Shown here: positions 7,184 through 54,681 of the stretch, piece by piece | Position numbering within the stretch: position 1 is the first letter of the stretch | How the letters are laid out: every line of letters begins with the position of its first letter | Assembly (NCBI GenBank): GCA_951813565.1 | Contig: OX638351.1 | Coordinates: 5,362,983-5,426,982 of the forward strand | Reading direction: 5' to 3' | DNA: 64,000 bases | Source of the DNA: an uncultured Poribacteria bacterium | GTDB lineage: Bacteria; Poribacteria; WGA-4E; WGA-3G | Position numbers and translations under genes: made by a program | Notes under the pieces: generated by a model | Databases searched by the model: none | The model's input: only the letters and a program-made list of their open reading frames with translations | Told to the model about the DNA's origin: nothing

Positions 7184-7420
7184 GGTAGTCCGCACACGCC
7201 GTGGGTTTCCGTCCACAAGTTCAAAGAGGCGCAGCATGCCACACGGGGAATGCCATAAGGCATTCGGACCGTTGATTTGGCGCATGCTGCGTTGATTTGG
7301 CAATGAATTGCGCGACTACAAACGCATTTCTATAAATCAAGCGGCACCTGGCGTCTGTCCTTGTCTGTGTTGATGCGCCAATTATTTATGCACACCCCTC
7401 AATTATTTATGCACACTCCT
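7184..7420. repeat. REP (GTAGTC...GCGACTAC) carrying two nested micro-elements (7230-7299), followed by a 21-bp tandem duplication (7379-7420)
   Basis: Removing the units restores GGCGCAATGAATTGCGCGACTAC; CAATTATTTATGCACAC(C/T)CCT occurs twice. Confidence 0.7.
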
Positions 7421-50871: not shown

Positions 50872-51270
50872 ATGAAAAACTTCACTGCGGGTACATACAA
50901 GCAACAGAGAGAATATAAGAGTTTTTCACCTTCTTTCGTTAACAGACTTGCTTGGGAAAACCCACAAATAGATCTTTTAATTGAGCAATCGGCAAATCTT
51001 TTGGGTGAACTCAAGGCTTATGCTGGAATCGCACCCGATGTCAATTTTTCCGTTCCAATGAGTATTGCTAAAGAAGCAATAGACTCTAATCTTATTGAAG
51101 GCACAAATACCGCCCTTGATGAAGTTGTCCTTCCACAATTAGAGATTCCGCCGATTAGACGTGATGATTGGCAAGAAATTCAAAATTATATTGAAGCCAT
51201 GAATTTTTCGATTGCCAAGTGCAAGAAATATACGAGCGCGTTACATTTCCTGAATAGGAACTCTATTTAG
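50872..51270 (+). pseudogene. Truncated Fic-family protein (N-terminal domain only)
   Basis: ANLLGEL...KEAIDSNLIEGT...DDWQEIQNYIEAM; no HPFxDGNGR motif; ends next to an IS terminus. Confidence 0.75.
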
Positions 51271-51926: not shown

Positions 51927-52523
51927 ATGGCACGACAACTCAGAATGCTCAGACCTAATCTGGAAGGCTTACCGAAATTAGAACTTCCCGCAGGGTACGG
52001 TCTGCGAAACTACCGAGAAGGTGATGAGGGACATTGGGCAAACATTATCAGCGATTCGTTCGGTGGAACAGAACGCACTGTACAAGATACGCGTAATGAA
52101 ATTACCGAACGAGATGTATTTGTTCCAGATGGACTCTATTTCGTAACATATCAAGATATTCCTGTTGGCACTGCATGTGCTTGGCGGCAATCAGTTGATG
52201 AGACAGATGTCGGATACGTGCACATGGTTGGCGTTTTAGGTGAACATACAGGACATAAACTTGGCAAATGGGTATCACTTGCCGTTCTCTACTATTTTCG
52301 CGACCATGGATTTTCCTGTTCTATACTTGACACAGATGATTTTCGTATCCCTGCTATTAAAACCTATCTAAACCTCGGATTTGTGCCTGTCTACGTTGAC
52401 GACACGCAACCTAAAAGGTGGCAAGAAATTTTTAGGAAATTAGAACTCCCATTTATGACCACACAGATTGCGCGAGTACAGAAGTTACTTCCTATCAAAT
52501 TGTGGGCAAAAGTATCACGTTAG
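51927..52523 (+). CDS. GNAT-family N-acetyltransferase
   Basis: VHMVGV...HTGHKLGK and AIKTYLNLGF. Confidence 0.85.
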   Translation: MARQLRMLRPNLEGLPKLELPAGYGLRNYREGDEGHWANIISDSFGGTERTVQDTRNEITERDVFVPDGLYFVTYQDIPVGTACAWRQSVDETDVGYVHMVGVLGEHTGHKLGKWVSLAVLYYFRDHGFSCSILDTDDFRIPAIKTYLNLGFVPVYVDDTQPKRWQEIFRKLELPFMTTQIARVQKLLPIKLWAKVSR

Positions 52524-52558
52524 CGTCCAAAATGAAATTACCAATAGCCTTGTAGGCG

Positions 52559-52981
52559 GGGTAGAGCGGAGCGAAACCCATAAATCAACGCTATGAATGC
52601 CCTTTGGCATTCAGCCAAATCAACGCAGCATGCGCGTATGGCATGCTGCGGGTGTCAACTTAAGAAAAAAATGCTGGTTTTTCTCTTGTGGGAGGGCTTT
52701 CTAAGCCCGATTTTGTGAGACTCAAGCTGTTGAATCCAAATCAACGATGAATGCGCCAAATCAACGGTATGAATGCCAATTAGGCATTCCCCGTATGGCA
52801 TTCAGCCAAATCAACGCAGCATGCGCCAAATCAACGGTCCGAATGCCTGTTGGCATTCCCCGTATGGCCTGCTGCGGGGTTGAAAACCCGACAAATACCA
52901 TACGCGTATTTGGCGTTGATTCACTCCCACAAGAAGAAATTTCCTTAAATTGACAGTTATGGGTAGAGCGTAGCGAAACCC
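52559..52981. mobile_element. MITE-like composite C containing seven nested micro-elements
   Basis: 21-bp direct repeats GGGTAGAGCG(G/T)AGCGAAACCC at 52559 and 52961; ends CCCATA..GGTGTCAACTTAAG / CTTAAATTGACAGTTATGGG; units at 52583-52650, 52737-52876 and 52889-52921. Confidence 0.8.
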
Positions 52982-53064
52982 GACATGTAAGCTAAATTGT
53001 CCATTATGGTTTTGTTTCCTAACCGCACTAAAAGGAATGTCTGTACTTTTGATTTTACTAAAAA

Positions 53065-54681
53065 ATGAAATTACCGATACCACAAAGAAATAGCACATAC
53101 AATCTCAATATTTTGATAATGCTTGCTATTCTTGCCATCGGTTTCTTGCTACGCATTCTCGGCATTGGCGTTGGGTTACCCAATTCTCCCGATCCTCGTG
53201 AAACATTAATTGCACAAGACATCCTAAATCTCATCAATTTCACTGCCCCTCCTGAAATCTATAATTGGCCTGGAACAGCATGGTTTTACCTGATTGCGCT
53301 GGTCGGGAAAATCCTTGCGATCTTCGATGTGGATATGACCGAAGCACGTGTGATCTGGATGGCACGGTTCATTAACGTGTTGTTGTCCACAAGCACGATA
53401 TGGTTGACCTATTGTCTTGGAACACAGGTTTATAACAAACAGGTTGGACAGATTGCTGCAGGATTCCTTGCAGTCGCGATGTTGCACGCCACCAATGAAT
53501 CGCGTTTTGCCCTTGTTGATATACCTGCCACCTTTTGTGTTACTTTATTTCTCTGGTTAATTGCGCGGGATATTCATCTGACGTTCCGAACTTGTTTGTG
53601 GTTAGGTATTGTTGCTGGGATCGGTATTGCGGTAAAGTTTACAACCATCTTTGTCGGACTATCTCTTTTGATTTTAATTAGAACAGAGAATTTTTATCGG
53701 AAATTTGCGGGGATAGTTGGTGTCACTGCGCTAACTTTTACACTCGTATGTCCATATTGGTTGGTTGATTTGATGTCATCAGAATGGAATCTCTTTTTTG
53801 AGGACTTCTTGTATGAAGTTGGTCACTACCATCGTGGGCATTTTGGATTATTTGCAACCGGGGATACTGGTTGGATCAGTCGGTTTCTGTATTTATGGAT
53901 ACTCTTGAAGTGGGGGATGGGATTGCCACTCGCGCTTCTGGTGAGCTTTAGTGTTATCTATGCACTTGCAAAATCGATACTATCTTTGAGAAAATCTGTT
54001 GCTACAAATCTGTTTGCAAATAAAAAAATACAGACAGGATTGTTAATACTCGCCTTTGCTATCCCGTATCTACTGTTTATTGGGACGTTTAAGGTCTCCT
54101 TTACACGGCATCTACTGATTCTTTATCCAGTACTTACAGTCTTTGCCGCTACTTTTCTCGTCTCACTTGACAAACGGATTGGTATTTTTTTTGGAAGTGC
54201 TGTTTGGCTGTATTCATTCGTTTACACCGCCGCATTTGCTTCTGTTATGCTATCGCAACCTACCGGGCAGGAAGCATCTGAATGGGTATCCGAAAACATA
54301 CCACACGATAGCTCAATTTCCCGTGCGCCAGAGATTCTATTTGATTGGCTTATACCTGAATTGGATAGAGAAATGGTGTCTGAGGATGAGGAATCCGAAT
54401 GGGCGTTAATAATCCAGCCTAACAGAGAAGTTATTGAAAAATATGGACAGAATCCACAAGATTATGAAAGGATTGATTGGTACCCACTGGAAGCTATTGA
54501 AATTGAAGGGACAGTTGAATTTTACAAAAGGATTTTAGGTGAAGGAAATCGCTATAAATTGTTCAAGACATTCAGGCGCAGCCCACAGTTTCTCGGAATC
54601 CGAATGTCAGATAAAGAAGCACCGTTTCCGATGCGAGCTCTTATTCATCCAGAAATTCGCCTATATCGCAGAATTGAATAA
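53065..54681 (+). CDS. GT-C membrane glycosyltransferase (ArnT/PMT_2, GT39/83-like)
   Basis: Multi-TM; PDPRE loop, ARFINV, SRFALVD, KF and RHLL. Confidence 0.8.
   Translation: MKLPIPQRNSTYNLNILIMLAILAIGFLLRILGIGVGLPNSPDPRETLIAQDILNLINFTAPPEIYNWPGTAWFYLIALVGKILAIFDVDMTEARVIWMARFINVLLSTSTIWLTYCLGTQVYNKQVGQIAAGFLAVAMLHATNESRFALVDIPATFCVTLFLWLIARDIHLTFRTCLWLGIVAGIGIAVKFTTIFVGLSLLILIRTENFYRKFAGIVGVTALTFTLVCPYWLVDLMSSEWNLFFEDFLYEVGHYHRGHFGLFATGDTGWISRFLYLWILLKWGMGLPLALLVSFSVIYALAKSILSLRKSVATNLFANKKIQTGLLILAFAIPYLLFIGTFKVSFTRHLLILYPVLTVFAATFLVSLDKRIGIFFGSAVWLYSFVYTAAFASVMLSQPTGQEASEWVSENIPHDSSISRAPEILFDWLIPELDREMVSEDEESEWALIIQPNREVIEKYGQNPQDYERIDWYPLEAIEIEGTVEFYKRILGEGNRYKLFKTFRRSPQFLGIRMSDKEAPFPMRALIHPEIRLYRRIE

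Follow-up and report, generated by a model that had tools for sequence, protein, structure and literature searches.

Genomic Context of the Locus

The stretch of DNA analysed (the window, 64,000 nucleotides) corresponds to G000:C1:5362983-5426982, where G000 is the source genome, a single contig of 5.43 Mb; two of the best-matching sequencing runs were labelled sponge metagenome. A stack of small hairpin units was found between a GNAT acetyltransferase gene and a PMT_2-type glycosyltransferase gene, together with the following features (window coordinates):

51927-52523, + strand: upstream gene, GNAT acetyltransferase (PF00583, domain match)
52529-53075, + strand: whole lineage-specific insert of ~530 bp, with a 14-bp exact direct repeat at its borders
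52559-52579 and 52961-52981, + strand: direct pair of 21-nt REP-like repeats (repeat family D4) around the MITE
52651-52957, no strand assigned: MITE-like element that encloses the REP pair; TA on both sides, 14-bp terminal inverted repeats
52679-52939, no strand assigned: host, an inverted pair of GTGG-footed REPs (REPIN-like), arms at 52679-52694 and 52924-52939
53065-54681, + strand: downstream gene, PMT_2-type membrane glycosyltransferase (PF13231, domain match)

The layers are nested, with the units in the inverted REP pair, this pair in the TA-flanked MITE, the MITE between the direct REP-like copies, and all of them in the ~530-bp insert. The 14-bp direct repeat at the insert borders (52529-52542 and 53062-53075) contains the start codon of the PMT_2 gene. 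The insert was missing from 12 of the 14 orthologous sites at which both flanks were obtained (19 loci compared, five unresolved), and the other two hold different inserts. Since G013 and G003 carry different inserts at this same gene junction, it is an insertion hot spot. The TA-flanked MITE-like family shows 156 ends genome-wide, often has REP pairs as its cargo and lands between REP copies. Elsewhere in the window, at 50872-51270, a short ORF with only a Fic_N domain (PF13784) was observed, probably truncated.

In four sequencing runs (DNA or unlabelled, contigs only) from four studies, one run possibly being the source of the analysed genome, the unique flanks continued into the insert on both sides in 4/4. 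Among the joints listed for these runs none crossed the whole insert, two joints lying outside those listed and the inner stack being unspanned.

Anatomy and Copy Number of the Units

A sequence-only reading of the locus had described a nested stack of seven elements, and a recursive parser recovered exactly seven units in 52581-52923. The same parser recovered a nested pair near the start of the window, where an identical loop insertion had been read at 7244. The units are:

52581-52615, - strand: unit 1, 35 nt, GCTGAA head, bulged ATAG arm, tail end TA; at the MITE end/TA junction
52616-52649, - strand: unit 2, 34 nt, GCAGC subtype, perfect stem; precedes unit 1 head-to-tail
52737-52806, - strand: unit B, 34 nt without its guest, unit 4, which splits it; inserted at the host REP hairpin (C^GAT foot)
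52757-52792, - strand: unit 4, 36 nt, GGGG subtype; guest of unit B, loop site ATAC^GCG
52807-52875, - strand: unit A, 34 nt without its guest, unit 6, which splits it; GCAGC subtype, placed ahead of unit B
52827-52861, - strand: unit 6, 35 nt, GGGG subtype; guest of unit A, loop site ATAC^GCG
52890-52923, + strand: unit 7, 34 nt, tail end CA; at a C^C site, the other foot of the same host hairpin as unit B
7231-7299, + strand: GCAGC unit, loop occupied by a GGGG unit (7245-7279); composite spread by block copying

Small details of the earlier description required correction. The two units placed at 52583-52650 do form a stacked pair, which occupies 52581-52649 at the MITE end/TA junction and whose distal unit ends in TA, not TG; the opposite-strand unit placed at 52889 is present, but it ends in CA and occupies a C^C target, so that C^G is not the sole target. 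Unit A has one stem mismatch and the arm ends of unit B do not match. Folding of the 140-nt stack gave z = -3.65, with 0/200 shuffles equally stable.

Each unit consists of a G, a stem-loop of 24-26 nt, GTTGATT and two variable bases, 34-36 nt in total. Read on the opposite strand, it presents a 9-nt foot (NN-AATCAAC) followed by the stem-loop, which is the layout of a REP. Genome-wide, the parser found 691 units, of which 17 were unclassified and excluded from later counts, leaving 674; 668 of these lie outside long ORFs. The tail 11-mer CGTTGATTTGG occurs in 519 copies in the genome versus four for the reversed control, and chance is therefore ruled out as the origin of the family. In being palindromes of 20-40 bp, in high copy and extragenic, the units are REP-like. 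No orientation bias with respect to flanking genes or GC-skew halves was found among the units genome-wide, and a terminator role was rejected because their orientation is unbiased relative to genes.

An Rfam search gave no match near the gathering score, the best being CRISPR-DR25 (18.7 bits against a cut-off of 36, E 0.43). The unit presumably resembles the ends of some CRISPR repeats; an origin from such a repeat was rejected, as the three resident CRISPR repeats differ from the unit and the CRISPR-DR25 match lies below the cut-off. Pure tandem unit runs resemble CRISPR arrays in periodicity searches, and one such run (G000:C1:3536350-3536660) has nine unit copies, with six to seven copies in G018 (L071). 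A literature search, mostly outside subscription papers, found no account of this hairpin-and-tail family, and a search of viral contigs for the unit gave zero matches. No autonomous parent was found in G000, where 23 distant head-tail pairs contain only nested repeats or ordinary genes.

Two variants were also observed. At G000:C1:502459 and L049:2198-2229 one hairpin carries the tail on both sides (inverted-repeat form), and such double-tailed units probably derive from recombination between opposite-strand units. Hairpins ending in CATG form a second, smaller family in the loops of GGTG-headed foot units genome-wide, a nesting that yields four- and five-level dolls in ~80 copies.

Insertion Sites and Empty Alleles

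The units had been proposed to nest in one another by insertion, and this was upheld. The left flank is C in 529 of the 546 units not preceded by a tail, empty paralogous alleles were found for 323 of the 529 units tested, and each unit offers further sites of the same kind, one C^G at its head and one in its loop. Comparison of empty and filled alleles revealed precise insertion, with target duplication absent. An inner unit is accordingly later than the unit that it splits, as had been read, and in a head-to-tail pair the C rule makes the 5' unit the more recent arrival.

Simple slippage does not account for the stack. The host REP pair has 36 paralogues in the genome (18-nt anchor), in which the C^GAT site was by hand count empty in 21, filled with different displayed stacks in 13 and degenerate in two. 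At genome position 4461377 a paralogue shows identical architecture with a different allele of each unit. The stack of units A and B is unique in the genome within 20 mismatches of 139, and so was assembled or remodelled at the present locus.

Among 42 distinct target contexts, C^G was found in 25, C^T in 12, C^C in two, C^A in two and A^G in one, while the background of the flanks is CG 26%, CT 18%, CC 23% and CA 32%. C^G or C^T make up 37/42 contexts (88%) versus 44% of the background (binomial p 4e-9, post hoc, the contexts being not fully independent because the heads of other units account for many of the C^G sites). CA steps outnumber every other C-step in the flanks and are avoided as targets. 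For the CC^TAC junction type, 32 of 34 units map to an existing CC^TAC allele of the host REP, in eight flank classes, and an abundant C^C host class has 44 copies.

The two sides of the unit behave differently. The hairpin-side junction is precise and the tail side is loose, with 0-2 target bases lost and the last two bases variable; 45 of 321 classified junctions show an extra C and the loss of 1-2 bases. At least ten unrelated host sequences were entered with the same left junction and a near-fixed unit length. In foot insertions into GGGG units, a C and the new unit take the place of the G in C^GTT, and no foot allele with the C and without a unit was found in the genome. In four genomes foot insertions obey a rule whereby the last base complements the lost one; the rule fails for other classes and is not claimed.

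Block Copying, Slippage and Recombination

Insertion is not the only source of copies. All 37 composites in the GAGGC host share one inner loop allele, and the copy at 7244 is one of ten with identical host flank and alleles, so it was copied with its host. Slippage is seen in runs of nine, five and three identical units and in repeated 69-nt dimers, and recombination in 18 hybrid-arm units and in REP halves recombined through the GGGG palindrome. Because of block copying, slippage and recombination, copy counts overstate insertion events.

These recombinant forms bear on an explanation that needs no dedicated transposase, in which host repair or replication would mend nicked hairpins by template switching or gene conversion from another copy, with C or CC as microhomology. 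The hybrid arms and recombined REP halves are consistent with it, as are the loose tail-side junctions with their extra C and lost bases, and the persistence of units in genomes where no Y1 was found. It is nonetheless unlikely, though worth weighing, in view of the same left junction and near-fixed length in at least ten unrelated hosts, the conservation of the tail in two genera and the avoidance of CA in spite of its abundance in the flanks.

Distribution across Genomes

The tail 11-mer was present in 40/40 genomes of the genus, with 13-519 copies each. The bulged-subtype tail pattern was found in 37/37 other genomes of the genus, in 50/57 of the sister genus and in 1/56 others drawn from the phylum; the unit tail is thus conserved across two genera. 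The GGGGAATGCC (GGGG) subtype, found in 39/40 genus genomes, is the most widespread of those tested, and the GCAGC subtype in which it sits was found in 10/40, a comparison limited by the different strictness of the two search patterns. The GCAGC subtype has 181 copies in G000 and at most 28 in any other of the 40 genomes, and in a one-gene tree (19/40 genomes, weak inner support) it lies mostly among the nearer relatives of G000, with G004 as the exception. Distribution, copy skew and tree placement together mark the GCAGC subtype as an apparently recent burst. A doubled-tail scar, the trace of foot insertion, was present in 36/38 genus genomes, and the same foot junction, with GGGG units preceded by other units, was observed in G018, G024, G015 and G016 (10 hand-picked regions).

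Subtype Niches and the Order of Nesting

The subtypes partition target niches. GGGG units lie in loops in 93 of 124 cases, and three fully stemmed subtypes do so in 0/511 for the two loop classes concerned (196 units unclassed, 14 loop exceptions in the parser output); foot insertion at C^GTT was found in 107 bulged arms versus 0/520 other arms, although founder effects could inflate these contrasts. The C of C^GTT is predicted to be paired with a probability of 0.49 in GGGG units and of 0.80-0.99 in the others; GGTG units are bulged, yet their predicted value is 0.92 (n = 3). No association was detected for the GGGG bulge as a guide (ATA/GGA versus host loop, Fisher p = 0.23).

The GGGGAATGCC subtype had been read as apparently the youngest because it is never itself interrupted here. 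The lack of interruption is true only of the GGGG unit at 7245 and the two at this locus. Across the genome, interruption affects 100 of 220 such heads, at the stem foot and not in the loop (98 interrupted versus 107 intact by a strict count). A simple loop/head parse gave 0/128 GGGG units interrupted, since foot insertions are missed by that parse, and the GGGG units look immune at the present locus because they usually have no loop C^G (7/128 have one). The guests at the GGGG foot are mostly of the GGTG-headed subtype (81 copies in 54 contexts; other subtypes 5, 5, 3 and 3), which is absent here. The order claim is half right: inner units are later than the units that they split, and the youth of the subtype does not hold, given the interrupted heads, the reciprocal orders and its being the most widespread subtype tested.

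In its strong form, the sequence-only reading had successive in-place insertions following one consistent subtype order, with GGGG the youngest. GGGG units do occur in the loops of three other subtypes (69, 18 and 11 copies), and the 0/128 of the simple parse is as this order would have it. The full parse, however, shows inner and outer orders that are reciprocal and contain cycles, and such inconsistency refutes the strict order on that reading's own terms. The foot insertions overlooked by the simple parse, the scar in 36/38 genus genomes and the wider distribution of GGGG than of GCAGC also oppose it, and it is highly improbable. Chains of GGGG > GCAGC > GGGG > GGTG occur at least twice in the genome, and head-to-tail pairs are found in both orders (57 vs 20; 25 vs 16). 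Since the subtypes differ in niche, the nests record niche and local order and not subtype age; when subtype targets differ, nesting depth dates events, not subtypes.

Candidate Mechanisms of Movement

Beyond the observed anatomy, empty and filled alleles, junction rules, niches, block copying and tandem runs, we infer a single-stranded intermediate, an enzyme class and a guide. The preferred reading, which we hold about equally likely to be right or wrong, is a RAYT-type (TnpA-REP) HUH route. The units would be non-autonomous mobile hairpins of 34-36 nt that enter single-stranded, hairpin-forming DNA via strand exchange at a cut 3' of C. The cut would be made in trans, most likely by a Y1 HUH nuclease of the RAYT kind, with a precise junction on the hairpin side and loose repair on the tail side. 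Each subtype has its niche: bulged GGGG units go into loops, those with perfect stems go to stem feet and the heads of units, and GGTG-type units use the C^GTT foot of GGGG units, where pairing is weak. Finished stacks then spread through copying of the host REP/MITE and are altered by slippage and recombination.

According to the available parts of the sources, TnpA-REP of E. coli cuts C^T, for example GGCC^TACA (PMC3333891), and in RAYT systems the foot tetranucleotide selects the cut (A3G4 giving CT, T2G4 giving CA and GTGG giving CC; PMC8266576). The CC^TAC site of host REPs, to which 32 units map, is of the type cut by the E. coli enzyme. The foot tetranucleotide AACG is present in 655/674 units, and the rule as given in that part of PMC8266576 predicts CG and CT for it, a post hoc fit. 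Because the target preference was noticed before the rule was applied, AACG as guide is put forward as a hypothesis only. The inverse site of AACG is the unit's own C^GTT, which is the foot target, and the half-unpaired state predicted for its C in GGGG units matches the need of a single-strand nuclease.

RAYT genes flanked by host-type REPs exist in the genome; no unit-flanked (cognate) RAYT was found among 30 loci of one RAYT group and 10 Y1 loci of G000, and at RAYT loci the units occur only as guests. PF01797 had no match in G023, G001, G010 and G024 (one of them closed), which have 104, 102, 62 and 33 tails, respectively. Unit counts do not follow Y1 number, G009 having 21 matches and 13 tails. 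Co-occurrence of units and RAYTs failed, both RAYT groups being common in non-carrier genera (genus g5, 9/9; genus g6, 19/20 and 16/20). When all 18,581 six-frame ORFs were searched with a profile, no further HUH protein was detected, two extra matches being a DDE-like IS ORF. Several observations count against the RAYT route itself: C^G is not among the RAYT cuts described in the available parts of the papers, the extra C and lost bases at 45/321 junctions misfit clean HUH transfer, and the C^C host class, the bulged yet paired GGTG units and the lack of an autonomous parent in G000 do not favour it. As to the AACG guide, it overlaps the stem base in perfect-stem subtypes, is one of several possible frames, and has C^T targets on the opposite strand.

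The genome is rich in insertion sequences, with five IS200/IS605-type TnpA, 29 TnpB-like copies and three IS607-like TnpA (family labels other than Y1 were read from the sequences, not from a library match), so that another transposase or recombinase (IS200/IS605 TnpA, IS607 serine TnpA, IS630-like) or an unrecognised enzyme might move the units. This is quite improbable: wherever a left end could be read, the IS200/IS605 copies follow TTAG or TTAA and not C, the two unit junctions share no direct core dinucleotide, and the IS110 catalytic domain (PF01548) was unmatched in G000 (95% complete), on which ground IS110 was rejected. Loci L002, L003 and L005 carry IS200/IS605 elements with TnpA and TnpB-like ORFs, inserted after TTAG/TTAA, the copy at L005 being interrupted by another IS.

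Alternatively, a reverse transcriptase could supply nicked hairpins with a copy of a short hairpin RNA that ends in a U-rich tail, the last two bases of the unit being non-templated or site-templated. The variable NN does track the target class, unit length is near spacer length, and the genome has two reverse transcriptase genes, one beside cas1 and a CRISPR array. With no orientation bias to genes or GC-skew halves, no target duplication and no likeness between the unit and any of the three CRISPR repeats, such copying is very unlikely. The cas1-associated gene lies at G000:C1:3988991-3996437 (L031, L033, L035), adjoining cas1 and a 54-repeat CRISPR array, and a stand-alone reverse transcriptase of 511 aa (PF00078) at L032:1066-2598. 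Two more CRISPR arrays were observed at ~1.198 Mb (48 repeats) and ~2.831 Mb (26 repeats, no cas1 beside it).

Returning to the RAYT-type route, a more specific form can be suggested tentatively, and is rather doubtful as a whole: the unit may be a one-hairpin, self-guided parasite of the REP machinery, in which AACG would retarget a domesticated RAYT to C^G/C^T, so that 34 nt of DNA would specify their own integration site. Such a unit would invade REPs at their natural cut site and nest in its own unpaired inverse foot, its subtypes occupying non-overlapping structural niches. It makes a concrete prediction testable with oligonucleotides, namely that a RAYT would cut at C^G under a new guide. 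If this holds, the unit would rank with the smallest mobile DNAs for which an enzyme is known, and would provide a minimal insertion module that leaves little scar.

Comparison with Known Systems

The nest is real and specific to this lineage, and its members belong to a family of very small mobile hairpins. The units share with REP/BIME/REPIN sequences and their RAYTs, as described in the available parts of PMC3333891, PMC8266576, PMC3116915 and PMC3733652, the size, a 5' foot with a hairpin, hundreds of intergenic copies, junctions 3' of C, and clusters formed by insertion into or beside copies and by tandem amplification. They differ from the REPs of these partly available sources in the foot, NN-AATCAAC in place of the GTAG or CGTC tag, and in moving as a single hairpin and not as an inverted doublet; solo, head-to-tail and nested units dominate on inspection of the parser output, made without a doublet statistic. 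They differ further in that the unit invades REPs and itself at fixed sites, and no REPtron for the unit was found in the genome, the RAYT loci being flanked by host-type REPs. The unit thus works like a REP/RAYT substrate and stands apart in tag, doublet form and REPtron.

With IS200/IS605 ends and their non-autonomous derivatives the unit shares a hairpin with a 5' tetranucleotide, which is a cut-selecting guide in those elements (PMC8266576, available part) and a putative one in the unit, strand specificity and the absence of target duplication. In contrast, it is one hairpin and not two ends, has no TCAA right end, and targets C^G/C^T where the resident IS copies use TTAG/TTAA. Derivation from IS200/IS605 (PATE) was rejected as the ends and targets of the resident IS differ from those of the unit, and a classical MITE because of the asymmetric ends and the empty alleles without duplication.

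Small dispersed repeats (SDR) of Nostoc were reportedly described by Elhai et al. in 2008. To the extent that they are treated in the available parts of PMC4390886 and PMC2884548, SDRs are likewise very small, possibly mobile repeats, and SDR5 is stated to insert precisely inside the HIP1 palindrome (PMC4390886). They are set apart, by description, by a size of ~20 bp (PMC2884548), another phylum and other targets; on these partial accounts and by description, they are the nearest precedent. The family is a variant of REP/SDR-like miniature mobile DNA, with SDRs compared by description. The spread of REP-sized repeats in living cells is still poorly understood, according to the available part of PMC8266576, and the hundreds of filled and empty sites reported here are evidence, at the level of individual junctions, that a single 34-nt hairpin moves.
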